From: Candidatus Cloacimonadales bacterium
Lineage (GTDB): Bacteria; Cloacimonadota; Cloacimonadia; Cloacimonadales; JAFGVF01
Assembly (NCBI GenBank): GCA_963663475.2
Contig: CAXXJV010000002.1
Coordinates: 224,001 to 288,000, forward strand
Direction: 5' to 3'
Length of the DNA stretch: 64,000 nt
The position numbers and the translations under genes are program-made. Below are positions 2,826-37,416 of this stretch, one piece after another. The notes under the pieces are model-generated. The model made no database searches and was not told the DNA's origin. It was given only the letters and a program-made list of their open reading frames with translations. Numbering within the stretch: position 1 is the first letter of the stretch; each line of letters begins with the position of its first letter.

Positions 2826-2854
2826 GACTAAAAATACTCAAATTTGGAGGAGGA

Positions 2855-3367
2855 ATGAAGATGAACTTTTTATTTTCCAATGCTTTTTGGGGAGTTTTAT
2901 TAATTCTCTGGGGCTTGTCTTTAGTGTTAAAAGCTTTTTTCCCAAGTATTAGATTTCCTATAGCTACAATTTTTATTTCTATTTGCATTATTGTTTTTGG
3001 ATTTCAATTACTAATAGGTGGTTTTGGTTCAAACAGAAGCAGAAACCATAAAAGAATGAGTCATGGCTATACAGAAAGAATTTCCGAAGAATTTTCTGAA
3101 GAACTGAATGTTGTCTTTTCGACTGATAGCATAAGGTTAAACAAGTTAGATGTCTCAACTCAAGACAGATATGTTGATGTAAATGCTGTATTCGGACGAG
3201 CTATAATTTATGTTAGTAGTACAACACCAGTGAGAATTGAGGCAGATGCTGTCTTTGGTAAAATCTATAAAGATTCAAGGTTAAAATGGGCTTCTGGCAA
3301 TGAAACAGCTCTCATCATAAATGCTGATGCTGTCTTTGGATCTGTGGATATTATAGTTTTAGATTAA
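2855..3367 (+). CDS. LiaF-like membrane protein (two N-terminal TM helices, C-terminal repeated 'ADAVFG' beta motifs)
   Basis: FWGVLLILWG TM start; repeated NAVFG/DAVFG; RBS ggagg. Confidence 0.65.
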   Translation: MKMNFLFSNAFWGVLLILWGLSLVLKAFFPSIRFPIATIFISICIIVFGFQLLIGGFGSNRSRNHKRMSHGYTERISEEFSEELNVVFSTDSIRLNKLDVSTQDRYVDVNAVFGRAIIYVSSTTPVRIEADAVFGKIYKDSRLKWASGNETALIINADAVFGSVDIIVLD

Positions 3368-3370
3368 TCG

Positions 3371-5527: not shown

Positions 5528-5535
5528 GAGGATAT

Positions 5536-6519
5536 ATGATACCTGTAATTGATCTTCATGCTGATACCTACATGAAGAAGAATATTTTTTCTACCCTACC
5601 TTGGTTAAGAAAGGCCTATTTTAAATTACCTTCTCAACCTGATAAAGAAGTTCAGATGACCGAAGATATCACTAAAGAAAGTCTTGTAGCTGGAAATGTT
5701 AAACTACAAACTCAATCCCTATTTATTGGTCAGATAGGCATTACTAATCCTCTCCATAATAGCTTAAAAATGATATCACAGATAAAACAAGATATTAAGA
5801 AAGATATTGACTTATATCAATATTATGAAAGTAGAGATTTTGACGAACATAAAGATAAATATGGTACCTTGATTTCTATTGAAGGCTTAGAAGTTATAGA
5901 AAATGACCTAGAGTTACTTGATATTTTTGCAGAACTCGGGGTTAGGATAATTGGTCCAACTTGGAACAGATCTCTTCCCTATGTAGGATCTGCTACTGAA
6001 CCATATGGTATTCTTAGACAAGGTAGGAAGCTAGCAGATAAGATTAATGAATTAGGACTGATATTCGATGTCTCACATATGTCTGATCAAGGTTTTTGGG
6101 ATTTCTTAAATATCTTAGAAGTTCCAATTATTGCCTCCCATTCAAATTATCGTAATGTCCTTCCTCATGAAAGAAATTTATCTGAAGAAATGATTAGAGA
6201 AATTGATAATCTCGGAGGTGTTATGGGATTGAACTTCTATCCTGATTTCATGCAAACATCAAAAATTCAAACATTTGCAGATTATCCTAAAGGCTATTCA
6301 GCTATTTATCACATGCTTGATGTAATTGTCTCAGAATTTGGAGATGATGTTGTAGCAATAGGTTCCGATTTTGATGGAATTTCTAAATATTTAGAAGGAG
6401 TTAGAAACCCCAGTTTTTACCAAGATTTCGCAGTCTTTCTAAGAAAACATAATGTTTCTATGAACACAATTGAAAAATTTTATTATAAGAATGCTCTTAG
6501 AGTGTTAAATATGATATGA
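5536..6519 (+). CDS. Membrane dipeptidase (peptidase M19)
   Basis: IDLHADT, SIEG, DVSH, ASHSN, RNL, IGSDFDG motifs. Confidence 0.88.
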   Translation: MIPVIDLHADTYMKKNIFSTLPWLRKAYFKLPSQPDKEVQMTEDITKESLVAGNVKLQTQSLFIGQIGITNPLHNSLKMISQIKQDIKKDIDLYQYYESRDFDEHKDKYGTLISIEGLEVIENDLELLDIFAELGVRIIGPTWNRSLPYVGSATEPYGILRQGRKLADKINELGLIFDVSHMSDQGFWDFLNILEVPIIASHSNYRNVLPHERNLSEEMIREIDNLGGVMGLNFYPDFMQTSKIQTFADYPKGYSAIYHMLDVIVSEFGDDVVAIGSDFDGISKYLEGVRNPSFYQDFAVFLRKHNVSMNTIEKFYYKNALRVLNMI

Positions 6520-13657: not shown

Positions 13658-14981
13658 TGATGAAATAAATATTGTAAAATTACTGAAAGAAATCTTCGAA
13701 GATGATAAGCATGAAACTGAATCTGCCTATAATGGCCAAGAAGCTCTGGATAAATTTAAAGCCTTTCAACCAGATGTCACATTTTTAGATGTAAAAATGC
13801 CTGTTATGGATGGAGTTAAAACTCTAGAAAAGATAAAAAATTATGCTCCAAATGCTCTAATAATTATGATTTCTGGCCATAGTAATATTCCGATAGCTGT
13901 TAAATCTATAAAAGGAGGAGCCTATGACTTTTTAGAAAAACCTCTCTCTCTTCCCATAGTCAAAGTAACACTCAATAAAGCTATTAAACACATTAGAATC
14001 AATAATAAAGTAGCAAACTTAGAAGAAAATTTAGATGCTAAATATACTATGATCGGTAATTCTCAACCTATGCAAAAACTAAAATCATTGGTTAAAAAAG
14101 TCGCAGTCACTAACTCCAAGGTTCTTATCCAAGGGGAAAGTGGTACTGGAAAAGAACTTGTCGCCTGGGCTATTCATACTCAAAGCTCTAGAGCAGAAAA
14201 TTCTTTTATCCGCTTTAACTCAGCTGCTATACCCAATGAACTGGTGGAAAGCGAACTCTTCGGTTATGAAAAAGGTGCCTTTACTGGAGCAGAAAATTCT
14301 AAAAAAGGTAAGATTGAAGAAGCTGACGGTGGAACACTTTTTTTAGATGAAATAGGGGATATGAGTATGACTGCTCAAGCAAAGATTTTAAGAGTCATTC
14401 AAGAAGGTGAGTTTGAAAGAGTTGGATCAAATCTGCCTATAAAAGTAGATGCTCGTATCATCGCTGCTACTCATAAAAATCTAAGTCAACTTATTAATGA
14501 AGGCAAATTTAGAGAAGACCTCTTTTACCGACTTAATGTCCTTCCTTTAAGTGTTCCCCCTCTAAGAGAACGATTAGATGATATCCCTGTCCTGATTGAA
14601 TATTTTTCTAATAATAATGCCCATGAAATGAAAATTACCCCTAAAAAATTCTCTCCTCAAGCTATTGATTATCTGAAAAAACAAGCCTTTCCTGGAAATA
14701 TCAGAGAATTAAAAAATTTGATAGAAAGACTTTACATTGTCTCGGATGATGAAACTATTGATCTCTCCCTTGTCTCTAATTTCCATAATTCTCATAAGAA
14801 GCAAGGAGACTTCTGGAATGAAACAACTTGTTATAGTGATAAAAAAAATCAATTTGAAAAGAAGTATTTAGAAATTCAACTTAAAAAACACCAAGGTAAT
14901 ATCTCAAAAACTTCCCAAGCTTTAGGACTTCAACAAAGCAACCTTTCCCGAAAAATAAAAGAACTAGGAATTGAACTTTGA
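13638..14981 (+). CDS. Sigma54-dependent response regulator (NtrC/NtrX family)
   Basis: Receiver (ADDE, LDVKMP), GESGTGKE, GAFTGA, FLDEIGDM, FREDLFYRLNV, Fis-type HTH; start MKILIADD. Confidence 0.93.
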   Translation: MKILIADDEINIVKLLKEIFEDDKHETESAYNGQEALDKFKAFQPDVTFLDVKMPVMDGVKTLEKIKNYAPNALIIMISGHSNIPIAVKSIKGGAYDFLEKPLSLPIVKVTLNKAIKHIRINNKVANLEENLDAKYTMIGNSQPMQKLKSLVKKVAVTNSKVLIQGESGTGKELVAWAIHTQSSRAENSFIRFNSAAIPNELVESELFGYEKGAFTGAENSKKGKIEEADGGTLFLDEIGDMSMTAQAKILRVIQEGEFERVGSNLPIKVDARIIAATHKNLSQLINEGKFREDLFYRLNVLPLSVPPLRERLDDIPVLIEYFSNNNAHEMKITPKKFSPQAIDYLKKQAFPGNIRELKNLIERLYIVSDDETIDLSLVSNFHNSHKKQGDFWNETTCYSDKKNQFEKKYLEIQLKKHQGNISKTSQALGLQQSNLSRKIKELGIEL

Positions 14982-15021
14982 CATTAGAGGCCATAGACAA
15001 ATCTCACTAATTGTCTTTATC

Positions 15022-15100
15022 CATCCCTTACCCTTCCTTTACGGTCTTTCGATGAAAGTCCCAGTTTCATCGAAAGACCGTAAAGGAAGGGTAAGGGATG
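15022..15100. repeat. Repeat family B: perfect 36-bp inverted repeat with 7-nt loop
   Basis: catcccttacccttcctttacggtctttcgatgaaa-gtcccag-tttcatcgaaagaccgtaaaggaagggtaagggatg. Confidence 0.92.
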
Positions 15101-15113
15101 CTTATAGCATCTA

Positions 15114-15305
15114 AACCCAAATAAAGCAGTAGAACTTTGTGAATAGCAGAATATTATTCTGCAAAAATAAGATCCATGATTTCTCCGAATATATATTATG
15201 ACTTCAAATTATGTAACTTATTTTGCTAAAAGAATCCAGCACTCTTCACCTGTGATACGTAGCTTTAGCGAAGTATTACTAAAGCTCTACTCCACTATCT
15301 GGATT
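15114..15305 (+). repeat. Repeat family A, long copy with both optional internal modules
   Basis: aacccaaataaagcagtagaactttg...cttattttgctaaaagaatccagcactcttcacctgtgatacgtagctttagcgaagtattactaaagctctactccactatctggatt. Confidence 0.88.
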
Positions 15306-15377
15306 TAACAAAGTCCAATAAAATACTTGACTCTAAAAGGCATTCCTAAAGAATTATTAATCAGAGGTATAAGATTA

Positions 15378-17600
15378 ATGAAAAAGATAGTCAGTATTTT
15401 TATTATATTATTTGTTTTTCATGTCCTGTCAGCTGATGTTTATGTAGATTCTTTGAAGCAAGTTATAGAATCACTTCCTTTCTCATATGAAAAAGGAGAT
15501 AAAATTTGGGATTTAGCTATTTATCAAACTAATAATCTCAAACAAGCAGAAAAGGCAATAAAGAACTTTAACTTAGCTACTCAAATGTTTGTAGAGATGG
15601 ATTCTCTGGAAAGTGCTGTTAAAGCTCATGGCAATGTTTTCAAAGTAGCTTTTACCTTCCCTGAAAATTTCGAGTATTCTAAACAAGCGTTTAAGAAACA
15701 TCTTGAGTTTTTAGATAATCCCAAACTTGCTAAAATGAAACGTTCAATGCTAATAAGTATCCAACGGCATCTTTTGAATGCCTATATTTTAAAAGAAATG
15801 GAAGAACTAAAAAAGGGCTTAGCTGAAGTAGAAATATATTTTGATGATAGAGAAAACGATGACCTAAAACTTGAATTTGACCATTATTATATACTCATGA
15901 CCAATTATTACTATGGAGAAGAAAAAGCACTTACAGAATCAATGAAAATCTATGAAAATATCCAAGAGGGGAAATATAACCTTACATATCCTGAAAAGGA
16001 ATTGGCCAGAGTCAAGATGCTATCTAATATGCAAAATTATCACTATTATAGAGGGGATATTGAACAGTCTAGTAAACTTCTAGCTCAAGCCCTGGATATT
16101 GCTAGAGATGTTTCTATAAATTACTCAGACCAACTTACCCCTATTCAACAGATAAACCTTAGAGATAGTATTGGCCAGCTAATGACTTTAAAGACTGATA
16201 ATATTGAAATTAAACTAGAAAACCTAGCAGAAATAGAACAAGGCTATCTCGATGTAAATAAATTTACTAAGTCTTATGACCCAGAAAGAACTTTTAATAA
16301 TTTTACTAAAATAGCCCATGCTTATGATGTAATTTATACAGGTAAACATCCTAAGGTTAAATACTATTTAGATAAAGCACAAGATCAAAGTGGAAACGTG
16401 CAAAATAAGCTGTATTTGACTAATTATTATCTCACAAAGGCTCGATATCTATTAAATAGAAAAGACTATAAGGCAGCTGATTTAGCCTTCGCTAAGGTGG
16501 AAGATTATGTAGAAAAATCAAATCAATCATGGATAAAATTTAACTATATTATGGAAAGATCTCGTTATTACTTTGAACAAGATCAAACTAAAAAAGCCTA
16601 TGATATGATTACTGGTTTTTATAAGTCTATTGATAAAGATTTTTCAAATAATATAGCCGAAAAAACTGCTGAACTAAATAATCAATTAGATACCCAAAAA
16701 TTAATTCATCAACAGACAAGATTAGAGGATGAACTTAGAATTAAATCCTTGCAGAATTCTCGTGAAACTCTTGTAACAACCCTAGTGGGAATAGTCCTTG
16801 GCTTTACTACTCTCTTACTAGTAAATAATGTTAGACTTAATAAAAAGCTTAAAACTAACCTTCATAGACAAGGTTCTCAATTGAAAGAAGAGATGGAAAT
16901 TAGCCAGAAGAGAGCCCAAGAATTAATTTTTTCTGAGAAACTATCTACTTCAGGCCAAATAGCTTCATCGATAGCCCATGAAATTAAAAATCCTCTAACT
17001 AATATTATTACTGCTGCTAAACTCCTCCATGATTCAAGGAATGAAAATGATATTGAGAAGTTTTATAACATTTGTCAAAGAAATTCTTGGTTAGCAATCG
17101 ATAAAATTAATGCCCTACTTGAGTATTCCAAACAAAAGAAAATGAATTTTGTAGCCTATTCTCTTAAATCTGTCATGAAAGAAGCTTATAACTTAAGCAA
17201 GGGAAGCCTGGAGGATAATCAAGTTAATTTTCAGTTAATCTATAATACCCATGATGATGTCTGCACAATAGACCCTAAAGAAATAACAGGTGTTCTCGTA
17301 AACTTAATTCTAAATTCAGTTCAAGCTATGGAAGATGATAATGAAGATAAAAGAATTGATGCTATCTTAGATGCTGAAGATAAGGATTATATTATTACAA
17401 TTAAAGATAATGGCGAAGGAATTGAGACTAGTAGATTAGATAAGATTTTTAACCCCTTCTATACCACTAAAGTAAAGGGTACTGGCCTAGGCTTAAGCTA
17501 TGCTCAAAAAGTAATTCTTGAACATCATGGGTCAATCTCTATTGATTCAAAAGAAGGTAATGGCACTCAAGTAGTTATCAGAATACCAAGGCAAGTATAA
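15378..17600 (+). CDS. Sensor histidine kinase with large helical (TPR-like) periplasmic domain
   Basis: Signal peptide from MKKIVSIF, TM near the C-terminal third, IAHEIKNPL, NLILNS, DNGEG, GTGLGL. Confidence 0.85.
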   Translation: MKKIVSIFIILFVFHVLSADVYVDSLKQVIESLPFSYEKGDKIWDLAIYQTNNLKQAEKAIKNFNLATQMFVEMDSLESAVKAHGNVFKVAFTFPENFEYSKQAFKKHLEFLDNPKLAKMKRSMLISIQRHLLNAYILKEMEELKKGLAEVEIYFDDRENDDLKLEFDHYYILMTNYYYGEEKALTESMKIYENIQEGKYNLTYPEKELARVKMLSNMQNYHYYRGDIEQSSKLLAQALDIARDVSINYSDQLTPIQQINLRDSIGQLMTLKTDNIEIKLENLAEIEQGYLDVNKFTKSYDPERTFNNFTKIAHAYDVIYTGKHPKVKYYLDKAQDQSGNVQNKLYLTNYYLTKARYLLNRKDYKAADLAFAKVEDYVEKSNQSWIKFNYIMERSRYYFEQDQTKKAYDMITGFYKSIDKDFSNNIAEKTAELNNQLDTQKLIHQQTRLEDELRIKSLQNSRETLVTTLVGIVLGFTTLLLVNNVRLNKKLKTNLHRQGSQLKEEMEISQKRAQELIFSEKLSTSGQIASSIAHEIKNPLTNIITAAKLLHDSRNENDIEKFYNICQRNSWLAIDKINALLEYSKQKKMNFVAYSLKSVMKEAYNLSKGSLEDNQVNFQLIYNTHDDVCTIDPKEITGVLVNLILNSVQAMEDDNEDKRIDAILDAEDKDYIITIKDNGEGIETSRLDKIFNPFYTTKVKGTGLGLSYAQKVILEHHGSISIDSKEGNGTQVVIRIPRQV

Positions 17601-25355: not shown

Positions 25356-26123
25356 TTGAAACCTGAAAAAAGAAATCTAATCTTTATATTTGATTTGAAA
25401 AAATACATTCATCTATTAGAAAAAACTGATGAATTTTTAACAGCTTCGGAAAAAGAAAAGGCTAAAGAATTTATATCTCCCCTTAATGAGTATAAATTAT
25501 TATCTCAAATTATTAGGAGACTCATTCTCTCTTTCTTTTTAGATTGTCCTCCTCAAGAGATTACCTATAAATATCAAGAAAAAGGGAAACCAATACTTGA
25601 TAATGATAATTTATTCTTTAATATCTCTCATTCTAAAAACTATATGGCTATGGCACTTAGTATTAATAATGATATTGGTATTGATATTGAAGCTTTGGCT
25701 TATATTCCCAAGCTTAATTCATTCTTAAATACTTATCTAAACCCTGAAGAAAAAGCTAAATTTAAGAAAGAATTTAGCAATAATAAGGAATATTATGCCT
25801 ATACTTATTGGACAATGAAAGAAGCCTATCTTAAAGGAAGAGCTTTAGGCCTAGACTTTGATATGAAGAGAATTAGTCTAGTAAACGCCAGTAATCTTCA
25901 ACAAGATTCTTTAATGTTTGCTTGCAAAGTTGATGGAGTCTTAGATAAAAAATCATACACTACTATTTTAAAAATAAATGATGAAAAAGAACTTATGTGT
26001 GCAGTGAGCTTACGGAGTAATGAGGCTTTTAATATTGGTCAAAATCAGATAATCCAATTTCTAAATCCCCAACTATCAAAAGCATATATTTTTACTAAAC
26101 TTAACAAAAATGTAGAGGAATAA
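25356..26123 (+). CDS. Sfp-type 4'-phosphopantetheinyl transferase
   Basis: GKP..FFNISHS, IGIDIE, WTMKEAYLKG motifs; adjacent to NRPS. Confidence 0.92.
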   Translation: MKPEKRNLIFIFDLKKYIHLLEKTDEFLTASEKEKAKEFISPLNEYKLLSQIIRRLILSFFLDCPPQEITYKYQEKGKPILDNDNLFFNISHSKNYMAMALSINNDIGIDIEALAYIPKLNSFLNTYLNPEEKAKFKKEFSNNKEYYAYTYWTMKEAYLKGRALGLDFDMKRISLVNASNLQQDSLMFACKVDGVLDKKSYTTILKINDEKELMCAVSLRSNEAFNIGQNQIIQFLNPQLSKAYIFTKLNKNVEE

Positions 26124-27263
26124 ATGAAAGAATATAATTTCAGTGATAGAATTGAAGATACGGAAGTCAAGAGAGTTTATAAAGTTGTTAAAAATCATAA
26201 AGAACTAACAAAAGTAATTGATGAAATGCCAATTTGGATTTTAATTCTCAATAAAACTAGGCAAGCAGTATATTATAACAAAAAGTTATCAGATGATTTG
26301 CAAGTTAAAGATAAATGGGATGTTCTTGGTTTAAGACCTGGGGAGCTCTTCTCTTGTCAACATGCATGGGCTGATCAGGCTGGATGTGGTAATTCTGAAT
26401 TCTGTAAATATTGTGGAGCAGTAAAATCTATTCGTAATTCTCATTTTGGTAAAAAAGATGTTCAAGAATGTAGATTGTTAATAAATAATAATAAGCAAAT
26501 CAATGCAATGGATTTAGAAGTTTCTTCATCTCCCTTAGTCTTGGATTCTGAAGAACTCACCCTATTCTCAATCTTAGATATATCTGCTTTAAACAAGTCC
26601 CTATACATTGAAAAGACCTTCTTACACGATATTAGAAATACTGCTGCTGCTATAGTCTCCAATGCAGATTTAATAAGCCTTGAAGAAGATCCTGAAATTA
26701 AAGATGAACTGCTAAAATTATTAACTCCAACAGCTCATCAACTAATAGAAGAAATAGCAGCTCAACAGGAAATTAGAAGTGCTGATCTAGGTGAATGGAA
26801 ACCTGCTAATAAAACCGTTGAAAGTAGAGAGGTAGTTGATAAAGTAATTGATACATGTAAGCATTATATTATAGACTCTGATATTAAAATTGTTAAATCA
26901 ATCGAATCTTTTTCACTTAAAACTGAAGAAATATTACTGAAGAGAGTATTAATAAATATGCTCAAGAATGCTATAGAAGCATCAAAAGATGGGGATATTA
27001 TTACTATCCAAGGGAAGAATTTAAATGATGTCTCAGTAATTTTTTCTGTCCATAATCCTAAGTATATTCCTGATGATATAAGACTTCAACTCTTTCATCG
27101 CACCTTTTCCACCAAAGGAAATAATCGCGGTTTGGGAACATATAGCATAAAAATGATAACAGAAAACTATCTTAATGGAGAAGTTAGCATTCATTCAGAT
27201 AAGATACACGGAAGCGTATTTTCAATAACTATTCCCAAAGATAATCAATCTGAAAATGATTAG
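26124..27263 (+). CDS. Cytoplasmic histidine kinase with Cys-rich PAS-like sensor
   Basis: GLRPGELFSC-X9-C-X5-C-X2-C; FLHDIRN H-box; NMLKNAIEA; FSTKG..RGLGTY. Confidence 0.85.
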   Translation: MKEYNFSDRIEDTEVKRVYKVVKNHKELTKVIDEMPIWILILNKTRQAVYYNKKLSDDLQVKDKWDVLGLRPGELFSCQHAWADQAGCGNSEFCKYCGAVKSIRNSHFGKKDVQECRLLINNNKQINAMDLEVSSSPLVLDSEELTLFSILDISALNKSLYIEKTFLHDIRNTAAAIVSNADLISLEEDPEIKDELLKLLTPTAHQLIEEIAAQQEIRSADLGEWKPANKTVESREVVDKVIDTCKHYIIDSDIKIVKSIESFSLKTEEILLKRVLINMLKNAIEASKDGDIITIQGKNLNDVSVIFSVHNPKYIPDDIRLQLFHRTFSTKGNNRGLGTYSIKMITENYLNGEVSIHSDKIHGSVFSITIPKDNQSEND

Positions 27264-30200
27264 TTTTTCTGCTCAAGTAGCATCTTAGATATTACTTTTG
27301 AGATATCTTCGACATAAGGGTATTTCAATACAGTTGTATGGGAACCTTTCACTGAATAATAATTAATTTTATTTACCATCCCTGACCAACCATATTTAGG
27401 GTCAGGGATTAATCCTTCTAGAGCTTGTTCAGCTAAAAAGAGATTAATTTCACCTGCTAAATCAGACATTGTATGATTATTCAATGCATCAATATTATAG
27501 CGATATATTCTTTTAAGTTTATCTATTTCTTCTTGAGATTTCCCTCCTAAGCTTTCTGTTATATTCTCAATAAAATCTTCTTCTAAAACTTTATGAATAT
27601 TAGAGAAGTTACTCAGTTTAGTATGGAGATAAGACTTCCAGAATTCTGGTCCTAAAATCACAGCATTAAATAACCTTCTCAATTGGTAGGTAATCTTTCT
27701 AAGTTTAGTATTTGGTCTGCCCCAAGTCTCTATTAAATAAAGGTTAACTTGAGTCTTGCCTCTCTTCTTTAGTTCATTTCCGATTTCATAGGCTAGAATA
27801 CCACCATAACACCATCCTCCTATATAGTAGGGACCAGTTTTTTGGATTTTTAAAATCTCAGCAGTATATTTTTCTACCATATCTTTAAAACAAGTATGGC
27901 ATTCAGCAGAGCTTAAGCCTTGAGATTGGATTCCATAAACTGGTATCTTATTGTCTAAGGAGTGAATTAGGTTCACATAGCCAAGAACATCTCCAGGAGT
28001 AGTGTGGGTTAGGAAAAGAGGTTTGTAATTTTTATCTCCACTCTGCAGAGGTGTAATTATGGAAAAATCAGCTTGTTTTTCTTCTTGTAGATAGCGAGAT
28101 AAGTCTCTCACTGTAGAATGCTGATAGAGTGATGAAGAGTTTATCTTCATATTTAAAGCTTTTTCTAAAGATACAATGAGCTCGATAGCTTTAAGAGAAT
28201 CACCTCCTTCTTTAAAAAAGTTATCATCAGGTTTAATTTGTTTACCTAAAACTTGTCTAAAGAGGGGAAGTATTTTGAGTTCATATAAGTTATAAGCTTG
28301 GACATTTACTTGCTTTTCTTGGATTTTAGGTTCAGGAAGTAAGGACTTATTAATTTTTCCATTAGGGTTTAAAGGAAGTTTATCAATTCTAATAAACTCA
28401 CTTGGCAACATATATTCTGGAAGATATTCTTTGGCAATAGCTCTTAAATTATCCTTGTCCATATCACTATTACTTAGGTAATAGAGGTAGATTTGACGGT
28501 GGTTTTCTTGACCTCTAATGTCTGCAAAAACAGTTTTTAAGGAAGTTCTTTGCATAAAAGTATTTTCAATTTCTGATAATTCAATACGGTAGCCATTCAG
28601 CTTTATTTGATCATCATCTCTTCCTAAGAATTTTATTTTGCCTGATTTATAAAAGAGACCTAAATCACCAGTAGCATATATTCTACCATATTCAGAAGTC
28701 TCAATAAACTTCTCATTTGTAAGTTTAGGGTTAGCAAAATAGCCTGGAGTAAGGCCAAAACCTCCAATATAGATTGATCCACTAAGGCCTATTGGTCTAG
28801 GTTTAAGGAACTTATCTAAGATATGGATAGAAGTATTTGGCATAGGTTTTCCGATTGTATCATCAATTCCCTCATCAATAGTAGCAATGATAGTAGCTTC
28901 AGTTGGACCGTAAGTATTGAAGATTTTCGTATGTTTAGGTCCATGTTCTTGCCAGAAGGAATAGATATCTTGCGAGGCTTTTTCTCCACCAATGACAAGA
29001 GTTTTTACTTTATCTGAGAAAGTATTTTGAGTTAAGGATTTGGTGATTTGCTGCCAAAAAGCTGTAGGAAGATTCACTATAGTTATTTTTTTAGATGCGA
29101 TAAAATCTAAGAATTGAGAAGCAGATTTATTGATTTCTTCATCTCTAAGGACAAGGCTAGCTCCAGCCAAGAGAGTAGGGAAAATCTCTTCCACCGAGAT
29201 GTCAAAACTTATGGAAGCGAATTGCATAACCCTGTCAATGCTTGTGATATCATATCTATCTTTAACAATGAGATTATGGTTGATTAGGTTAAAATGACTT
29301 ACTGTAACGCCTTTAGGCTTGCCAGTAGTGCCAGAAGTGTAGATAATATAGGCTAAGTCTTGCGGATTTATTTTTATCTCATTTTTGTTATTTGACAGGT
29401 ATTTCTGGTAATTAGTCACTGATAAAAAGTCTAAATTTTCCAAGGAAGAATAAGATAAATCAGAGAAAATAGTTTTACATTTAGAATTTTCGATTATATG
29501 TTTAATTCTTTCATGGGGATAATCAGGGTCAATAGGCAGATAGGCATTTCCACTTTTGAGAATTGCTAAGATAATAATTATCATTTCTAGGCATCTATCA
29601 GTTGAAATAGCGATGAAATGTCCTTGTCCATATTCATTGAAGAGGTAGTTAGCTAAATCATCAGAAATTTCATCAAGATGCTTGTAAGTGATGTGTTTAT
29701 CAGCATGTTCTACTGCAATATTATCTGGGTATTTACTTACCGAATCTTTGAATAAATCAATATAAGAAACATTTTTTGGTAAAGGTAATTTTACAGAATT
29801 CCATTGCTTAATTAGGGATAAATCAGTCTCATTGATAAGTAATATATCCTTTAGAGGTAAATGATCTTGGAGATTAGATTTGAAGGTTGAATAAAGAAGA
29901 TTATCTTCAATAACTTCATAATTAGTAAGGATTTTAGCAAGATAAGCAAGGTCTGGGAATCGATAGAAAATACTTTTTAATAAGGATTTATGTTTTTTGA
30001 TTCTTGAAATACTTTTCTGAATATTTGTGATATTTTCTTGAAGAGATAACTTGAAATCTACTTTAATATTAAGCAGGAGTTTATTCATCAGAAGTGGATT
30101 ATTGTTTTTATAAGTAATTGCAAGAGAGAAATTAGATTGGGTATAAAGACGAGCAATAAAGCAAATGTAAGTTGCTAAGTCTGGATTATCAAAGTCCAAA

Positions 30201-33200
30201 TTATCAGAATTACTTACTTTATTATATTTGCCATTAAGGTCTTCTAAAGCTTGGTATTTAGCAAATTGTTTAAGCCAAAAGGCCTGATTTTTGATAGCAT
30301 CTTTATAAGATGCCAAATCTTCTAAAGTAGGTGGTTGCCAAGACTTCTCATCTCTTAGATCATGTAAGTTAATTTCTTGACCTGTAAGATTATAAAGTTT
30401 ATTAGCTATGATTAATCCATCTTTTAGATTTATCTCACAAGTTGATTGGCTAATGCTGAGATTTTTTGCATCACTAGTAGAGTTGCGCTTAAATTGAGCT
30501 TGTCCAATATGATAAAATTCATTAGCAATTTTGATTTTAAGACTTGCCACAGGGTTTTCAGTATCACCAAAAATACTAGCTCTGTATAAATTATCAGCTT
30601 GATCAATGCCTGTATCTGCTAGTAAAGAACAAGAATAATCAGGTCTATAGTCAGCGGGGAAATAAGTTCTTTTGCTTAAGTCTTGTGGATAAGTTTGCAA
30701 ATCATTATCATTAATAGAATCAAGTAAAGATGAAAAGGCATCTAGTGCTGCTTCATAGCATTTCATATTCAAAGAAAGAGAAGTATCTTCTTTGTTAACT
30801 TCTACTTGCTTTTGAATTAGTATCTGTCCAGTATCAATACCTTGGTCTACTTGATGCCAGGTAATACCGTGGTTTGTCTCATTATTTATAATAGCCCAAT
30901 AAGTAGCATAAAGTCCAGCATATTTAGGAAGTAAGGAATCATGATAATTAATAGCTTTCTTAATTGGACTAGCTAGAATCTCTTCATCTAAGACAATACT
31001 ATTGACAATACTAAAAAGGTAGTCATAAGGGTACTTCTTTAATATTTCTTTGATTTGATTCTTGGTTAAATCAAGAGAATAGATTCCTTGGCTTATAGCC
31101 CAGTCTCTAACTTGCTTATTTGGTGAAAATATTCCATAAATGTGAAAACCTTTGGCAATAAGTAATTGGGCAGATTTAATGCCCAGACTTGTCTCAGTTA
31201 AGATAAAGCAAGTATTTTTATTAGCTGTTACAGTAGGAGGATTCAAGTTATCAAGTAAATCTAAAAATCTCTCTTTTACTTCCTGGATTAGTGATTCTTG
31301 ATAGAAATCGGTATTATATTCTAACCAGAACTCCATTCCTGTTTGGATTTCTTCAGCATTTAAGATGATATCAGTTTTAGAAGTATTAGCCCCGATTTCT
31401 TTTTCTGATTTGATGATAGAATTTTCATCTGTTCCATGCCAATTTTGCATAACAAAAATAGCTTGATAGAGAGGAGTTTTAGATTTATCTATAGGTAGGT
31501 TAAAACTTTTAACTACATCTCCAAATGGTTGAGAACTATGGTCTAGGGCTGCCATAACTTGCTTGTGAATTTCAGTTATGATATCTTTAAAGGATTTATT
31601 AAAAAGCATAGCTCTTACAATAACCATGTTAGTATAATAACCTATTAATTGCTCTTCAATCTTACTTTTTCTTCCAGCAAATGGGAAGGCAACTGTGATA
31701 TCACTTCTTTGGGATTTTTCGGCAAGAACTATTTGATATATTGCTAGAAGAAGTGAGAAGAGAGAAACTGAGTTTGCTTGAGCAAACTTACTAATCTTTT
31801 CTAAGTGAATATTATCAATCTTAAACCAAATTCTCTTACCTTTAGGACTAAGATACTTATGCTTTATTCTATCTGGAATAAGGGCTAGGTCTGGAGAGAA
31901 GGGTTTAAGGACTTTATGCCAGTAGTCTTGATCTGTCTCATAGCTATTTGCCTTATCTTGTAGCCATTGGGCATAGTCTATATTCTCTACTTTTGCTTTT
32001 ATCTCAAGTGAAAGTTCTTTATCTGAATCAAGTTTATGGTAAATCTCAGAGAGTTTATCAATAAATACTTGCATCGACCATCCATCAAATATCAGGTGAT
32101 GAATATTTAAGAATAGAAGGAGATTATCCTTATATCTTACTAATTTTATTTGATATAGAGGGTATTGGTCAGCCCTTAATTGACTAGCTTGGAGGTCAGA
32201 TATTATTTTATCTAAGTCTTCTTGGTTTTTGCTAGTCAGTATTTCATAATTCAAATCTCCCACAGGTTGAATGAACTGGAAAATTTTCTTGTTAACTTCT
32301 TTGAAATATGAACGGAAAGATTCATAAGAATTAACTAATAATTGCAGACTATTTATGAGTTTCTTTTCCTTAATGTCTTCTTTGATTTCACATTTAACTA
32401 AGATATTATAAATTCGCTTAGAGTCATCTAAATGACTTAAATACCAGAGGTCTTCTTGGTTCTTAGTTATGGAATAATATTCTTTATCTCTAGAAATGAA
32501 TTTAATCTCAGCTGGCCTGTCTTCTGAGGAACTTACAATTGCTGCTAATTTTCTAATACTTGAATTAGTCATGAACTGCCCTAATTCGAGTTTTAATCCT
32601 CTATTTTGTAATTCATTTACTATCTGAGCTGCTTTGAGAGAATGGCCTCCAATATAAAAAAAGTTATCATCAATAGAGATGTTTTGCAAATCTAAATAGT
32701 CTTTCCAGACTTGAAGTATTTCAGCTTGGATTTCATTCTCTGGACCTATTATAGCCTTATCTTCTTTTGGTAATTCAAGACTTTCCAAGGCACGTCTATC
32801 AACTTTCTTATTAGGAGTAAGAGGAAGCTGGTCTAAATGAAGATAAAACTGAGGTACCATATAATCAGGTAATTCTTGTTGACAATAGGAAACAATCTCA
32901 CTTTGCTTAATTTTCTCTTTATTCTTACTTGTATAATAAGCAACTAGGAATTTCTCATTACCTTGTCCAACTGCAAGAACTGTGGCTTGATCAATATTTT
33001 CATGCTTATGTATTACTTTCTCAATTTCATCTAACTCAATTCTTAAACCTCTAATCTTCACTTGGAAATCAATTCTACCACGGAAATCAATTCTCCCATC
33101 AGCTAGTTGTCTAACCAGATCTCCACTTCTATAAATAACTTCTTCATTTAACCTGTCATTTACTTCCTTATTCCTGATAAATGCTTGGGCTGTTTGCTCA

Positions 33201-34258
33201 GGTAACTTCCAGTAACCATTACCAACACTTGCTCCCGCCAGACATAATTCACCCATTTGTCCTTTTGCTACTTCCTGTAAGTTTTCATCAAGGATATATG
33301 TTCTGGTATTGGTTATTGCTTTGCCAATTGTGATAGGTCCTTGATAAGCTTTAGGAAAGATATCTAAAACTGTAATACAAGCACATTCAGTAGGTCCATA
33401 AACATTAACAATTTGAGGTTTGAAATTAGCTGGTGGAAGTTTTTTAAGAGCATCACCACCTAAATAAAGATACTTGAAGGAGCAAGTTTCTGGAAAAGTT
33501 TCATCAAAAAGCATTTCCGCAATTGGAGTAATCAATAAAATATCTCTGATATCCTTTTCTATTATCCAATCACGTAACTTCTTGGGTTGAAGTAGAATAC
33601 TTTCAGGAGTAAAATATAAGGTAGAAGCAGAAAGCAGGTTATACCAGATTTCTAGAGTAGATGCATCAAAGCTAAGTCTAGCATTTTGACAGGAATTATA
33701 CTTACCAAAAGGTGGCTTAAAAGTCTGCTGGAAGTGTTTAACTAAGTTAATAACTCCTCTGTGATTAACCATTACCCCTTTAGGCTTACCTGTAGAACCT
33801 GAGGTGAAGAGGATATAGATATTGCTCAAGTCATCTATAGTTTCTAAATTTGGTTTTTCGAGAGATAAGTTACTGAGAGAAGGGCTATCAATAAATATTT
33901 TAATCTTATTATAATTGGGAAGAATAGCTTGTAATTTTTCTTGAGAACCAAGGATAAAGGATAGTTCAGAATTAGCAATTATAAAATCTAACCTATCGTC
34001 TGGATATTTAGGATCGAGAGGTACATAATAACAATTCACTTTTAGAATAGCTAAGATTGCTATTATATAATTGTTGTCTCTATAGGCAAGGACACCTATT
34101 GCTTGTTTTGATTTAATCCCTTTTTCTATTAGGTAATTAGCCAACTGATTGGCTTTATTGTTCAGCTCTCCATAGGTTAATGAACTAAATGAATCTACTA
34201 TTGCTGTCCTCTGTGAAAACTCCAAAACAATTTTTTCAAACTTATCTGTAATTAACAT
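27260..34258 (-). CDS. Two-module non-ribosomal peptide synthetase A-T-C-F-(C remnant)-A-T-TE
   Basis: A1 (FTSGSTGKPKG, YGPTE, YRSGD, NKKVDR), T1 GGHSL, C HHLIFDG, formyltransferase INYHDSLLPKYAG/GIDTG, A2 (YTSGTTGKPKG, NGKINK), T2 GGDSL, TE GWCYG...GSH; probable start ATG 34258 with RBS gaggga. Confidence 0.93.
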   Translation of the reverse strand: MLITDKFEKIVLEFSQRTAIVDSFSSLTYGELNNKANQLANYLIEKGIKSKQAIGVLAYRDNNYIIAILAILKVNCYYVPLDPKYPDDRLDFIIANSELSFILGSQEKLQAILPNYNKIKIFIDSPSLSNLSLEKPNLETIDDLSNIYILFTSGSTGKPKGVMVNHRGVINLVKHFQQTFKPPFGKYNSCQNARLSFDASTLEIWYNLLSASTLYFTPESILLQPKKLRDWIIEKDIRDILLITPIAEMLFDETFPETCSFKYLYLGGDALKKLPPANFKPQIVNVYGPTECACITVLDIFPKAYQGPITIGKAITNTRTYILDENLQEVAKGQMGELCLAGASVGNGYWKLPEQTAQAFIRNKEVNDRLNEEVIYRSGDLVRQLADGRIDFRGRIDFQVKIRGLRIELDEIEKVIHKHENIDQATVLAVGQGNEKFLVAYYTSKNKEKIKQSEIVSYCQQELPDYMVPQFYLHLDQLPLTPNKKVDRRALESLELPKEDKAIIGPENEIQAEILQVWKDYLDLQNISIDDNFFYIGGHSLKAAQIVNELQNRGLKLELGQFMTNSSIRKLAAIVSSSEDRPAEIKFISRDKEYYSITKNQEDLWYLSHLDDSKRIYNILVKCEIKEDIKEKKLINSLQLLVNSYESFRSYFKEVNKKIFQFIQPVGDLNYEILTSKNQEDLDKIISDLQASQLRADQYPLYQIKLVRYKDNLLLFLNIHHLIFDGWSMQVFIDKLSEIYHKLDSDKELSLEIKAKVENIDYAQWLQDKANSYETDQDYWHKVLKPFSPDLALIPDRIKHKYLSPKGKRIWFKIDNIHLEKISKFAQANSVSLFSLLLAIYQIVLAEKSQRSDITVAFPFAGRKSKIEEQLIGYYTNMVIVRAMLFNKSFKDIITEIHKQVMAALDHSSQPFGDVVKSFNLPIDKSKTPLYQAIFVMQNWHGTDENSIIKSEKEIGANTSKTDIILNAEEIQTGMEFWLEYNTDFYQESLIQEVKERFLDLLDNLNPPTVTANKNTCFILTETSLGIKSAQLLIAKGFHIYGIFSPNKQVRDWAISQGIYSLDLTKNQIKEILKKYPYDYLFSIVNSIVLDEEILASPIKKAINYHDSLLPKYAGLYATYWAIINNETNHGITWHQVDQGIDTGQILIQKQVEVNKEDTSLSLNMKCYEAALDAFSSLLDSINDNDLQTYPQDLSKRTYFPADYRPDYSCSLLADTGIDQADNLYRASIFGDTENPVASLKIKIANEFYHIGQAQFKRNSTSDAKNLSISQSTCEINLKDGLIIANKLYNLTGQEINLHDLRDEKSWQPPTLEDLASYKDAIKNQAFWLKQFAKYQALEDLNGKYNKVSNSDNLDFDNPDLATYICFIARLYTQSNFSLAITYKNNNPLLMNKLLLNIKVDFKLSLQENITNIQKSISRIKKHKSLLKSIFYRFPDLAYLAKILTNYEVIEDNLLYSTFKSNLQDHLPLKDILLINETDLSLIKQWNSVKLPLPKNVSYIDLFKDSVSKYPDNIAVEHADKHITYKHLDEISDDLANYLFNEYGQGHFIAISTDRCLEMIIIILAILKSGNAYLPIDPDYPHERIKHIIENSKCKTIFSDLSYSSLENLDFLSVTNYQKYLSNNKNEIKINPQDLAYIIYTSGTTGKPKGVTVSHFNLINHNLIVKDRYDITSIDRVMQFASISFDISVEEIFPTLLAGASLVLRDEEINKSASQFLDFIASKKITIVNLPTAFWQQITKSLTQNTFSDKVKTLVIGGEKASQDIYSFWQEHGPKHTKIFNTYGPTEATIIATIDEGIDDTIGKPMPNTSIHILDKFLKPRPIGLSGSIYIGGFGLTPGYFANPKLTNEKFIETSEYGRIYATGDLGLFYKSGKIKFLGRDDDQIKLNGYRIELSEIENTFMQRTSLKTVFADIRGQENHRQIYLYYLSNSDMDKDNLRAIAKEYLPEYMLPSEFIRIDKLPLNPNGKINKSLLPEPKIQEKQVNVQAYNLYELKILPLFRQVLGKQIKPDDNFFKEGGDSLKAIELIVSLEKALNMKINSSSLYQHSTVRDLSRYLQEEKQADFSIITPLQSGDKNYKPLFLTHTTPGDVLGYVNLIHSLDNKIPVYGIQSQGLSSAECHTCFKDMVEKYTAEILKIQKTGPYYIGGWCYGGILAYEIGNELKKRGKTQVNLYLIETWGRPNTKLRKITYQLRRLFNAVILGPEFWKSYLHTKLSNFSNIHKVLEEDFIENITESLGGKSQEEIDKLKRIYRYNIDALNNHTMSDLAGEINLFLAEQALEGLIPDPKYGWSGMVNKINYYSVKGSHTTVLKYPYVEDISKVISKMLLEQKN

Positions 34259-34357
34259 GATCAATCCCTCTCTCTTAAGAATGATATTTAACAATTTATT
34301 AGGAGATGTTTTTATTAGTCAAGAATAAATATCAAAGTTGAAGATAAAAAATTTGTC

Positions 34358-34427
34358 GAGACTGTTCAACCATCAAGCCACCCTCTTCACTAAATCTCTA
34401 CTAGACTATCTGGGTTTAAACAGTCTC
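34358..34427. repeat. Hairpin containing the right end of family A, between the divergent NRPS and gcvPA
   Basis: gagactgttcaacc...ctcttcactaaatctctactagactatctgggtttaaacagtctc. Confidence 0.6.
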
Positions 34428-34618
34428 AGTTTGTCTAACTTGCTCGCAGCTATTGTTATTTTTCATAATTTACTAAAATCATGTTGAATAAAAGAGGATT
34501 ATAACCTGTCTAAGTTACTAACTAATAGGGGAATATAAAATTATTTCACTTTTTATTGACAGAATAGTGCCTTAAAATGTATTAGTTATTAAAAATAAAC
34601 TAAAATTAAGGAGTTAAT

Positions 34619-35959
34619 ATGCCTTACATTTCAACTACTGAGCAAGAACGCAAAGAGATGCTCCAAGAGATTGGTGTTTCCTCTTTCAAAGAGCTTATTA
34701 CCGCTATTCCTGAGAAATTTGTACTCAAGAAGGATTTAGATTTAGAACCTGCCTATTCAGAACAGCAGATTTCAAGAAAAGTTTTTCAACTAACTAATAC
34801 AAACAAATGTACTCAAGCTTCTGATTCATATCTAGGAGCAGGTGTTTATGATCATTTTATTCCAGCTGCAGTTGATACAATAGTGTCTCGTCCTGAATTT
34901 TATACAGCATATACTCCTTATCAAGCTGAAGTAAGCCAAGGAACTCTACAATTCATTTATGAATATCAAACTATGATTTGCGAGCTAACAGGTATGGAAA
35001 TAGCTAATGCTAGTATGTATGATGGTGCTTCTGCTATAGCCGAAGCAATCTTAATGGCAATTAGATCTACTAGAAAAAATAAAGCTCTTATTGCTGATAC
35101 AATAAATCCTAACTATAAGAATGTTATTGCACGTTATACAGAAGGTTTAGGTATTGAAATCGAATATGTTAAGTCGGTAAATGGTGTCTTAGATATCAAT
35201 GATTTACAAGCAAAAGCAAATGATGATTTAGCTTGTTTAGTTGTTCAAAGTCCTAACTTCTTTGGAAATATTGAAGATATGTTTGCTGCAGAGCAAGTAA
35301 TTCATCAAACTAAGAAGGGTATGTTTATTGCTTCAACCGATCCAATTGCTCTAGCAATTACTAATTCTCCAGCAGAATATAAGGCTGATGTTGTAGTTGG
35401 TGAAGGTCAAGCTCTGGGCAACAATATTAATTATGGTGGCCCACTTTTTGGTTTCTTTGCTACTCAACTATCAAGAGCAAGAATGATGCCTGGTAGAATA
35501 GTTGGTGAGACTCTTGATGAAGCTGGTAATAAGGCATATAGTTTAACCTTACAAGCCCGTGAACAGCATATTAGAAGAGTTAAAGCAACATCTAATATCT
35601 GCTCAAATCAATCTTTATGTACTTTAGCAGCAACTGTTTATATGGCATTAATGGGTAGGGAAGGACTTAAGGAAGTTGCTACTCAATCAATAACCAAAGC
35701 TCATTATTTAGCTCAAGAAATTTGTAAGATTGATGGCTTTGAGTTAGCTTATCCTCAGCAAACCTTCTTCAAAGAATTTGTTATCAAAACTCCTATGGCT
35801 GCTGAAAAAGTCATAGCTTATGCTTTAAATCATAATATCTATGCTGGTGTTGATATGAAAAGATTTGGTTATGATAACCAGCTGATGATAGCTGTTACAG
35901 AAAAGAAAACAAAAGCTGATATGGATAGATTTATCAGTGTTCTTAAGGGGGTAAAATAA
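34619..35959 (+). CDS. gcvPA: Glycine dehydrogenase subunit 1
   Basis: YLGAGVYDHFIP, EFYTAYTPYQAEVSQG, NASMYDGA, REQHIRR.KATSNICSNQ. Confidence 0.96.
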   Translation: MPYISTTEQERKEMLQEIGVSSFKELITAIPEKFVLKKDLDLEPAYSEQQISRKVFQLTNTNKCTQASDSYLGAGVYDHFIPAAVDTIVSRPEFYTAYTPYQAEVSQGTLQFIYEYQTMICELTGMEIANASMYDGASAIAEAILMAIRSTRKNKALIADTINPNYKNVIARYTEGLGIEIEYVKSVNGVLDINDLQAKANDDLACLVVQSPNFFGNIEDMFAAEQVIHQTKKGMFIASTDPIALAITNSPAEYKADVVVGEGQALGNNINYGGPLFGFFATQLSRARMMPGRIVGETLDEAGNKAYSLTLQAREQHIRRVKATSNICSNQSLCTLAATVYMALMGREGLKEVATQSITKAHYLAQEICKIDGFELAYPQQTFFKEFVIKTPMAAEKVIAYALNHNIYAGVDMKRFGYDNQLMIAVTEKKTKADMDRFISVLKGVK

Positions 35960-37416
35960 TGTCTACTACAATTTTTGAAAAAAGCTCTCAAGGAAGAAAA
36001 GGCTTCAATATATCACAAAATGATGTTAATATTGAATTAAAAGACATTCTTCCTCAAAATCTTAGTCGTAAAGAAGATGCAAAACTTCCACAGTGTTCAG
36101 AATTAGATGTTTTAAGACATTATATAGAACTTAGTAGCAAGAACCATTTCATTGAAAAAGGTTTTTATCCATTAGGTTCTTGTACTATGAAATACAATCC
36201 CAAGATTAATGAAGCTGTTGCTCGCCAATCAGGTATTGCCAATTTACACCCAATGCAAGCTGAAGAAACTGTGCAAGGTGCTCTTCAGATTATGCATGAA
36301 CTCCAACATGATTTGGCTGAAATCTCTGGTATGGCTAACGTAACTCTACAACCTGTAGCTGGTGCTCAAGGTGAATTTGTTGGCTTAAAAATCATCTCAG
36401 CCTATCACCAAGCAAAAGGTAATAATCATAAAAATGTAATTATCATGCCTGATTCAGCTCATGGTACCAACCCAGCTTCTTGTTCATTAGCTGGCTTTGA
36501 AGTAAAAGAGTTAAAATCAAATTCACAAGGTAAGGTGGATGTTGAAGAATTACGTAAGATGGTAGATGAAAATACTGCAGGTTTCATGCTTACTAATCCA
36601 AATACTCTTGGTCTTTTCGAAAATAAAATAGAAGAAATTGCTGAGATTATTCACTCTGTTGATGGTTTAATGTACATGGATGGAGCTAACTTTAATGCTC
36701 TACTTGGTATTGTTCAACCTGGTAAAATTGGTTTCGACGTAATGCATTATAACCTCCATAAAACTTTCTCAACTCCTCACGGCGGTGGTGGACCTGGTTC
36801 TGGTGCTGTTGGTGTTGTTGAACATTTAGTTAAATTCTTACCAGTTCCTATGGTTTCTAAGAATGATGATGGTTACTTCTTAGACTATTCTCATGAAGCT
36901 ACTTCAATTGGCAAAGTTCATACCTACTATGGTAACTTTGGTATCAATGTCAGAGCTTATGTTTATATCAAAATGTTAGGTGCTAAAGGTATCAGAAGTG
37001 TGGGTGAGAATGCAGTGATTAATGCTAATTACTTACAAGCAAAGCTTAAGGATTATTATAATATTAGTCATGCTGACCAATATTGTATGCACGAATTTGT
37101 TGCAGACGGAACTATCCAAAAGAAAAAATACGGAGTTTCAACTCTAGATATCGCTAAACGCTTACTTGATAAAGGATTCCATGCGCCAACAATTTATTTC
37201 CCTCTTATTATCAGTGAAGCTATTATGATAGAACCAACTGAGACAGAATCCAAGCAATCGCTTGATAAATTCATCCATGCAATGATTGAAATTGCTCATG
37301 AAATTGAAAAAGATCCAGAATCTTTACACCATGCACCATTTAATACTCCTGTAAGAAGAGTAGATGATGTTAGAGCAGTCAAAGAACTAAATGTAAGATT
37401 TACTTTTGATAAATAA
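35959..37416 (+). CDS. gcvPB: Glycine dehydrogenase subunit 2
   Basis: PLGSCTMKYNP, SAHGTNPAS, NLHKTFSTPHGGGGPG, MIEPTETESK. Confidence 0.96.
   Translation: MSTTIFEKSSQGRKGFNISQNDVNIELKDILPQNLSRKEDAKLPQCSELDVLRHYIELSSKNHFIEKGFYPLGSCTMKYNPKINEAVARQSGIANLHPMQAEETVQGALQIMHELQHDLAEISGMANVTLQPVAGAQGEFVGLKIISAYHQAKGNNHKNVIIMPDSAHGTNPASCSLAGFEVKELKSNSQGKVDVEELRKMVDENTAGFMLTNPNTLGLFENKIEEIAEIIHSVDGLMYMDGANFNALLGIVQPGKIGFDVMHYNLHKTFSTPHGGGGPGSGAVGVVEHLVKFLPVPMVSKNDDGYFLDYSHEATSIGKVHTYYGNFGINVRAYVYIKMLGAKGIRSVGENAVINANYLQAKLKDYYNISHADQYCMHEFVADGTIQKKKYGVSTLDIAKRLLDKGFHAPTIYFPLIISEAIMIEPTETESKQSLDKFIHAMIEIAHEIEKDPESLHHAPFNTPVRRVDDVRAVKELNVRFTFDK

Follow-up and report, generated by a model that had tools for sequence, protein, structure and literature searches.

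Introduction

According to the available text of two reviews, formyltransferase (F) domains of nonribosomal peptide synthetases (NRPSs) are confined to initiation modules, where the N-terminal residue of the peptide is the only one that they formylate. Here we describe a two-module NRPS gene from a 64,000-nucleotide stretch (the window) of Candidatus Cloacimonadales bacterium (assembly GCA_963663475.2, contig CAXXJV010000002.1, positions 224,001 to 288,000 of the forward strand), in which the F domain follows an intact condensation (C) domain. As judged from the sequences, an F domain that is conserved and apparently active lies inside an elongation module in this gene and in no fewer than 42 related protein clusters, almost only in combination with a lysine-like adenylation (A) domain. 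The literature searched, the scope of which excluded most subscription journals and supplements, gave no account of an F domain within an elongation module or of a formyl-lysine made by an NRPS.

LgrA (F-A-T, where T is the carrier domain; PDB ID 5ES5 and related entries) resembles the enzyme described here in the chemistry that is expected and in having a formyltransferase core in cis with an A-T unit, and is by sequence the best solved relative of the second A domain, A2 (E 4e-165 over its two A domains). In the part of its description available, the F domain of LgrA is N-terminal, has about 193 residues and is joined directly to the A domain, whereas here F follows a C domain. LgrA also differs in that the F domain presented here keeps a second subdomain of the ArnA/Fmt type and is separated from the A domain by half a C domain (C'). 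The N-terminal F-C'-A modules (F-C'-A-T-TE, F-C'-A-T-R and others, with a terminal thioesterase, TE, or reductase, R), which are largely uncharacterised, are homologous over F-C'-A, but in these F starts the protein and the codes of the A domains vary widely. Among them, the P0035-like proteins consist of F-C'-A-T followed by Pfam reductase-type families, and have a Phe/Tyr-like code. The bursatellin enzyme of a mollusc, given as Fmt-A(Tyr)-T-R in the accessible part of its report, is grouped here with these modules by its domain order and size, that is, by architecture alone.

Three further systems share single features with the locus. The N-terminal domain of ArnA and methionyl-tRNA formyltransferase (Fmt) have the same two-subdomain fold and catalytic triad as F, but they stand alone or form part of fusions with other enzymes, and their substrates are a sugar nucleotide or Met-tRNA. 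PvdF and its relatives, from hydroxamate siderophore pathways, are stand-alone enzymes which, as far as the source extracts go, formylate a nitrogen in the side chain of a diamino acid which later becomes part of a peptide. PvdF acts in trans on N-hydroxy-ornithine and matches the F model only weakly (Z 12.5); no N-hydroxylase was found beside the NRPS gene. Finally, the isonitrile lipopeptide NRPSs (Rv0101, MmaA, ScoA) have lysine-type A codes, taken from a partly available source, that are close to those of the modules with C before F, but these synthetases have no formyltransferase domain and release their product reductively.

Domain organization and integrity of the gene

The gene encodes the domains A1-T1-C-F-C'-A2-T2-TE in a single intact frame, as established by Pfam together with profile and structure comparison (Table 1). 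The hallmarks of a modular type I NRPS are present, namely two A domains, two T domains with the serine motif and a C domain with the HHxxxDG motif. In Pfam, AMP-binding matches two stretches (E 5.5e-143, with the C-terminal lid included in A1), PP-binding another two (E 1.1e-28), Condensation residues 605-1017 (E 1.5e-76), Formyl_trans_N residues 1076-1187 (E 9.6e-21, which exceeds the curated cut-off) and Thioesterase residues 2092-2193 (E 7e-16). F starts at about residue 1027, immediately after the intact C domain, and A2 begins at residue 1515; the approximately 320 residues between Formyl_trans_N and A2 have no Pfam match, even at E≤10. A comparison of adenylation domains shows that A2 resembles the structures of LgrA, ApnA and GrsA. 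Since A1 has Asp235 and Lys517, its predicted substrate is an alpha-amino acid.

The initial annotation, made from the sequence, had proposed this domain order, with an intact C domain before F (its HHLIFDG motif is present) and a half C domain without HHxxxDG after it, on which hhalign and the predicted structure now agree. The motif coordinates it gave are all exact (INYHDSLLPKYAG at 30914-30952, HHLIFDG at 32081-32101, AFWLKQF at 30263-30283 and YICFIARLY at 30143-30169). The domain scan and the structure prediction that it had suggested as checks return, respectively, a formyltransferase and a two-domain formyltransferase fold with the C-terminal half of a C domain; the host does belong to an anaerobe lineage, as had been supposed.

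The open reading frame spans 27260..34294 on the minus strand, and a TTG at 34294, in frame upstream of the ATG at 34258, would give 2344 codons. The ATG (residue 13 of the 2344-codon frame) is the likely start, because a relative that is 97% identical (P0002) begins there and the length from there is equal (2332 residues).

An assembly chimera, a frameshifted gene or a decaying pseudogene, which had been a concern for the junction between C and F, is refuted by several observations, and no point was found in its support. Two metagenome contigs from other studies, of 22,290 and 18,620 nucleotides, cover the gene from end to end without gaps and differ from it by 94 and 129 substitutions, respectively; a third, from a different run, extends over 28191-34294, across C, F, C' and A2, likewise without gaps. 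Among 232 genomes of the phylum searched, six Cloacimonadota genomes besides the gene's own have an open frame of 2117-2350 residues, with an F-C' region that is 47-60% identical; in the other 36 matching genomes the frames have only 224-353 residues, as expected of ordinary Met-tRNA formyltransferases. With this query, the gene is limited within the phylum to one family, occurring in five of the six other genomes of its own genus, in the one genome of a second genus and in none of the four of a third. The protein differs from P0002 at 38 of 2332 residues, but at only 2 of 195 in the catalytic subdomain of F (F_N), which is among the least-changed parts. Since these 38 residue changes stand against approximately 129 base changes, the gene appears to be under purifying selection; the ratio of nonsynonymous to synonymous substitution rates (dN/dS) is about 0.1-0.15, a rough estimate which assumes that P0002 corresponds to the 18,620-nucleotide contig.

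A formyltransferase on a predicted condensation-domain platform

Two AlphaFold models were analyzed. The first, of residues 1019-1510, was computed from 29 aligned sequences and has a mean predicted local distance difference test score (pLDDT) of 90.5 and a predicted template-modelling score (pTM) of 0.83; the second covers F-C'-A2 (977 residues; pLDDT 88.1, pTM 0.76). By structure comparison, residues 9-302 of the first model form a complete formyltransferase with two subdomains. The best matches are ArnA (Z 27.8, 286 residues aligned, root-mean-square deviation (rmsd) 2.6 Å; Foldseek E 2.7e-22) and Fmt (Z 26.5, 289 residues, 2.6 Å), while the F domain of LgrA aligns over about 170 residues (Z ~17, 2.3-2.5 Å). 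The Asn, His and Asp residues of F align to the catalytic residues of ArnA. Neither this triad nor L104/P105 of the SLLP motif varies among the aligned relatives with an internal F, whether in a set of 29 or in one of 36. From the intact triad, the fold and the conservation, F is predicted to be active.

It is also conceivable, though improbable, that F is a structural scaffold between C and C'-A2, or that it performs other folate chemistry, such as the hydrolysis or thiol transfer of 10-formyl-tetrahydrofolate dehydrogenase. The fold does match the hydrolase domain of the latter enzyme (Z 24.5, 279 residues aligned), and C' is a dead remnant that is tolerated in the family. However, the triad and L104/P105 do not vary although the 36 relatives are only 31-67% identical, and F_N, as noted above, is one of the parts that change least.

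The F unit of approximately 290 residues is followed by C', of approximately 180 residues, and then by A2. The profile of C' aligns to the C-domain profile from just past HHxxxDG to near its end (hhalign probability 95%, E 3.4e-8, 197 columns). In the model, C' (residues 1322-1496, model residues 304-478) resembles the C-terminal subdomains of solved C domains, namely those of TycC, EntF, RzmA, ObiF1, CDA, AB3403 and TomB (Z 8.7-9.4, 137-156 residues aligned). The modelled C' and A2 superpose as a rigid pair on C-A didomains over 525-649 residues with an rmsd of 2.7-4.3 Å; these include McyB (533 residues, 2.7 Å), FmoA3 (534 residues, 3.2 Å), EntF (642 residues, 3.7 Å), Txo1 (536 residues, 4.0 Å) and BmdB. 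Superposing F and A jointly on LgrA gives an rmsd of about 20 Å. Because C' and A2 fit on real C-A pairs while F and A do not fit on LgrA, the models indicate that a formyltransferase has taken the place of the N-terminal, catalytic half of a C domain, of which the half that holds the A domain is retained.

Distribution of the F-C'-A unit and association with lysine-like codes

A first search with F-C'-A gave 159 proteins, of which 120 were listed and all 120 domain-mapped. An exhaustive search gave 19,743 clusters at E≤1e-3 and 1059 at E≤1e-30; a further 141 representatives were domain-mapped, the survey covering the best 150 of the 1059 clusters. In the first search the modules with an N-terminal F-C'-A unit are 25-45% identical over 44-98% of the query region. 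F is at the N-terminus in most of the mapped proteins (80 rows of the first set and 124 of the second), and is followed by C', A and T, and then by TE, a reductase or more modules. A C domain directly precedes F in 37 rows of the first set and 11 of the second (48 together), and in 4 further rows an N-terminal C domain before F was recognised by HHxxxDG alone, giving a total of 52 modules with C before F; the order C-formyltransferase-A, which the initial annotation had proposed to look for in other proteins, is thus not confined to this gene. The HHxxxDG motif is intact in 38 of the 41 C domains that precede F. The complete order A-T-C-F-C'-A-T-TE(Cys), in enzymes of about 2340 residues, occurs in Cloacimonadota, a group labelled Kiritimatiellales and further uncultivated lineages.

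The specificity codes were read at ten positions from an alignment of all A domains, located by anchor motifs which we take to be those of GrsA. The list of positions agrees with the published passage, as far as it is available, and the columns look correct, because they reproduce published codes: DLYNLSLIWK is returned exactly and a Phe code, from a source seen in excerpt, at 9 of 10 positions. The code of A2 is DIENVGTIIK. Among the 52 modules with C before F, 43 codes are lysine-like, 7 are of a glycine type and 2 could not be read (truncated rows). All 43 modules with C before F and an uninterrupted A domain fit the pattern D-x-E-[DN]-x-G-[TS]-[IV]-[IV]-K. By comparison, 11 of the 125 N-terminal F modules with a readable code fit D-x-E-[DN]-x-G, and most of the 11 end in GAITK or GSVNK, unlike the internal pattern; the other N-terminal modules have many different codes. 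N-terminal F-C'-A proteins with a lysine-like code include P0040, P0044, P0131 and P0137.

Published Lys codes, in the accessible parts of their sources, are DIEDVGSVVK and DTEDVGTVVK (Rv0101/MmaA and ScoA) and DGEDHGTVVK, the last of which differs from an ornithine code by one residue. P0062 and the P0022 group are each identical to a published Lys code at 9 of 10 positions, while A2 is identical to DIEDVGSVVK at 6 of 10, with four conservative changes (D/N, S/T and two V/I). The family's own ten-residue codes had no match in the literature searched. The predicted substrate of A2 is a diamino acid, most likely L-lysine.

The codes of A1, on the other hand, vary by lineage: DALLYGVCIK in the gene presented here, and elsewhere DVWHISLVD-, DSCSQGLVDK, DVYYLGGVYK, DGWFSGVVYK and DASFRGEIVK. 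Since the upstream codes differ in this way, the constant element of the family is C-F-C'-A(Lys-like). The association with lysine persists in three-module relatives in which the lysine is not the last residue (P0014-16, P0176 and P0186).

In a separate group, comprising 34 modules, a luciferase-like monooxygenase of some 400 residues is inserted in the A domain at approximately query positions 210-250 (a subset of P0041-P0119, and P0240), and all 34 have a glycine-type code (DIL-MGMIWK and variants). Several of these F-C'-A-T proteins bear cyanobacterial names. In three other proteins (P0139, P0213 and P0227) the F unit seemingly lies inside an A domain, in the order A core, F, last part of A, T; this arrangement resembles the methyltransferase insertions of interrupted A domains and would be a third position for F.

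Proposed mechanism

The domains and their order, the intact catalytic motifs, their conservation and the lysine-like code of A2 are observed; the activity of F, its acceptor, the order of the steps and the product we infer as follows. A1 would load an alpha-amino acid onto T1, and A2 a diamino acid, most likely L-lysine, onto T2. On the A2 platform F and C' would stand in for a C domain, and F would formylate one amine of the T2-bound residue with 10-formyl-tetrahydrofolate. The upstream C domain would then couple residue 1 from T1 to the other amine, and the TE would free a formylated Xaa-Lys dipeptide. F-C'-A is inherited as one unit and is normally at the start of assembly lines, where F serves the T domain that follows its own A domain.

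We lean, with only slightly better than even confidence, towards a reaction in which F formylates whichever amine of the T2-bound, lysine-like residue is not used by C. This leaves two arrangements. An N-epsilon-formyl group with a normal alpha-peptide bond is slightly preferred, as a tentative choice; an N-alpha-formyl group with an epsilon-isopeptide bond is somewhat more doubtful. In the isonitrile lipopeptide system both amines of a carrier-bound lysine are reportedly acylated, which would be a precedent for an NRPS that modifies both. The initial annotation had held that alpha-formylation of residue 2 would block the upstream C domain; this premise is too strong, as with lysine C could acylate the epsilon-amine, a route missing from its list. 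It had then left three options, of which a side chain as the target of F agrees with the lysine-like code of A2, though unproven, action on residue 1 stays in play (see below), and a non-collinear line is unlikely from the topology.

The C domain shows features that may bear on the selection of the acceptor. Arg821 is found in 95% of the C domains before F and in 4% of the other 26 C domains in the same proteins; for Glu966 these figures are 93% and 19%, and for Gly968 90% and 4%. In P0186, the C domain before F has Arg at the position of 821, while its sister paralogue has Ser. Arg821 and Glu966-x-Gly968 are thus candidate residues of an acceptor gate, and the C domain could be tuned to a formylated or epsilon-amine acceptor. 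It may, by analogy with LgrA, take the formylated residue only; the C domain of LgrA appears, from the part of the report available, to select a formylated donor. As a weak hint, these residues, taken with the lack of F columns specific to the internal F domains (see below), suggest that C rather than F has adapted to the arrangement.

The main alternative concerns the acceptor of F. The domain could cap the free alpha-amine of residue 1, whether that residue is still on T1 or already part of the dipeptide on T2, to give formyl-Xaa-Lys; the capping would then be of the ordinary N-terminal kind, with nothing unusual but the position of the domain. This agrees with the characterised F domains, all of which, in the text of the two reviews referred to above, cap an N-terminus, and A1 has no N-terminal cap domain, so that residue 1 keeps a free amine. 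Capping of residue 1 would nevertheless leave unexplained why all 43 uninterrupted A domains are lysine-like, in several lineages and with at least six different A1 codes, and the association with lysine holds also where the lysine is not last in the chain. We consider it unlikely, and a little more so than either of the two lysine arrangements given above.

Several observations weigh against formylation of the T2-bound residue, and some of them speak for the capping of residue 1. In seven of the 34 proteins with a monooxygenase-interrupted A domain, F follows a C domain with an intact HHxxxDG motif, and yet the A domain is of the glycine type; the existence of this clade means that an F domain after C need not have a second amine on its own residue. 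No column of F is specific to the internal F domains at thresholds of 85% against 20%, that is, there is no sign of a remodelled acceptor pocket; at a looser threshold Ser1172 alone stood out. The C domain before F is of an ordinary elongation type by sequence. The code of A2 does not separate Lys from Orn, and a basic residue without a free amine is formally conceivable. In addition, the rows are related to one another: independent contrasts number only 3 if the supported branches are counted and 5 if all are; the code goes the same way in about 2 of them and the other way in none, and a sign test is not significant.

A non-collinear line, in which F-C'-A2-T2 initiates and formyl-Lys is donated to residue 1 on T1, would draw on the homology of F-C'-A-T to initiation modules. 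The topology of the protein opposes it, with T1 directly before C (the donor site), T2 after A2 (the acceptor site) and TE after T2, and the association with lysine would again be left unexplained; such a line is very improbable.

Returning to formylation of the lysine-like residue itself, we suggest, with rather less than even confidence, that C-F-C'-A(Lys)-T is a distinct and recurrent elongation module that places N-formyl-lysine (formylated on the side chain, or N-alpha-formylated and epsilon-linked) in peptides, and that its C domain admits the formylated residue only, with Arg821 and Glu966-x-Gly968 as candidates for the gate.

The thioesterase

The nucleophile elbow of the TE domain reads GWCYG, with Cys in place of Ser, so that the canonical G-x-S-x-G is absent. 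The nucleophile is Cys in 31 of the 33 relatives with an internal F and a TE. In the 39 N-terminal-F proteins it is Ser in 31 and Cys in 6, and was not found in 2. Cysteine thioesterases are known from beta-lactone- and beta-lactam-forming NRPSs. A Cys thioesterase that forms a lysine lactam, which would explain the link to lysine without F, was considered and set aside, as the link holds in the three-module relatives where Lys is not last.

Origin of the module

Homology between the F-C'-A unit and modules that are mostly at the starts of proteins extends along the entire unit, and for this reason the gene looks like an A-T-C unit joined to an F-type initiation unit, as had been suggested at the outset. 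In a tree of F-C' the internal forms are intermixed with the N-terminal ones, and the 90 coded rows require at least 5 changes of position. In a tree of C domains, those before F form two large clades and four single rows among ordinary C domains, requiring at least 4 changes; one of these four, the C domain before F in P0186, is sister to the downstream C domain of the same protein. Both are quick trees in which many deep branches are unsupported. Taken as they stand, these phylogenies indicate that the C-F junction arose more than once.

Genomic context

The genome (3.30 Mb in 2 contigs, 99% complete) has one condensation domain, that of the gene presented here, which is thus its sole NRPS. 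The coordinates of the gene, its domains and its neighbours are collected in Table 1. The Sfp-type 4'-phosphopantetheinyl transferase (PPTase), noted initially as a nearby gene, is the likely activator of T1 and T2.

Table 1. Features of the NRPS locus, numbered by position in the window.
Feature	Position	Strand	Details
NRPS gene	27260..34258	-	2332 aa from ATG at 34258
A1, adenylation domain	32795..34255	-	residues 14-500, Pfam; code DALLYGVCIK
T1, carrier domain	32501..32752	-	Pfam; GGHSL serine motif
C, full-length condensation domain	31235..32482	-	Pfam; HHLIFDG 32081-32101; Arg821, Glu966-x-Gly968
F_N, formyltransferase catalytic subdomain	30650..31216	-	Asn1116, His1118, SLLP within 30914-30952; Asp1154 within 30827-30868
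F_C, formyltransferase C-terminal beta-barrel subdomain	30335..30649	-	as in ArnA, Fmt
C', C-terminal-subdomain remnant of a condensation domain	29798..30334	-	without HHxxxDG; profile and predicted structure
A2, adenylation domain	28310..29779	-	Pfam; code DIENVGTIIK, lysine-like
T2, carrier domain	28070..28297	-	Pfam; GGDSL serine motif
TE, thioesterase domain	27263..28042	-	Pfam; Cys at nucleophile elbow, GGWCYGG 27800-27820
Sfp-type 4'-phosphopantetheinyl transferase	25356..26123	+	one gene from the NRPS
379-aa protein	26124-27263		GHKL/HATPase_c match only; between NRPS and PPTase
Two glycine-cleavage P-protein subunit genes	34619-37416		divergent from the NRPS
555-aa protein	38690-40357		matches to Por_Secre_tail (type IX secretion sorting domain), carbohydrate-binding and cleaved-adhesin families

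In four genomes of the same genus (loci L033-L035 and L037) the gene order is kept: glycine-cleavage P subunits, NRPS, GHKL/histidine-kinase-like protein, Sfp-type PPTase, two TPM proteins, LemA and an amine oxidase. Across these relatives the flanking proteins are 77-97% identical, the GHKL/kinase-like protein 69-80%, the NRPS 68-72% and the PPTase 35-44%; the NRPS and the PPTase evolve faster than the flanking proteins. In the second genus (genome G103, locus L036), the NRPS lies amid restriction-modification and defence genes and has none of its own-genus neighbours, and no PPTase was found in the 20-kb stretch around it. The surroundings at this locus (620-6416 and 13923-16194) include a type I restriction-modification methylase and specificity subunit, a nucleotidyltransferase pair, GmrSD, a PhzF-like protein and Schlafen/AlbA_2, and look like a defence island.

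As the neighbours are not kept in the other genus, a multi-gene biosynthetic cluster was rejected, and the system is best described as a single-gene pathway plus a PPTase. For the same reason, the glycine-cleavage genes are probably unrelated neighbours and their adjacency a coincidence. These genes feed the folate one-carbon pool that F would use. Upstream of the gene (34150-34700) no Rfam family was found at E≤1, the lysine and tetrahydrofolate riboswitches included, and promoter-like sites are at chance level (35 found, 35.1 expected). A look for RNA runs that contain the gene gave none.

Implications

If the proposed reaction is correct, in-cis formylation is not confined to chain initiation, and a testable rule for tailoring would follow, in which a second amine lets in-line formylation coexist with chain extension. 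The way in which the module is built, with a formyltransferase on a C-A platform that has been retained, is of use to NRPS engineering, and also to genome-mining tools in which F is expected at the start of a protein alone. The A-T-C-F-C'-A-T-TE(Cys) enzymes would then make an unseen family of small formylated Xaa-Lys metabolites, and for this clade of Cloacimonadota the product of the gene presented here would be the first NRPS metabolite to be predicted.

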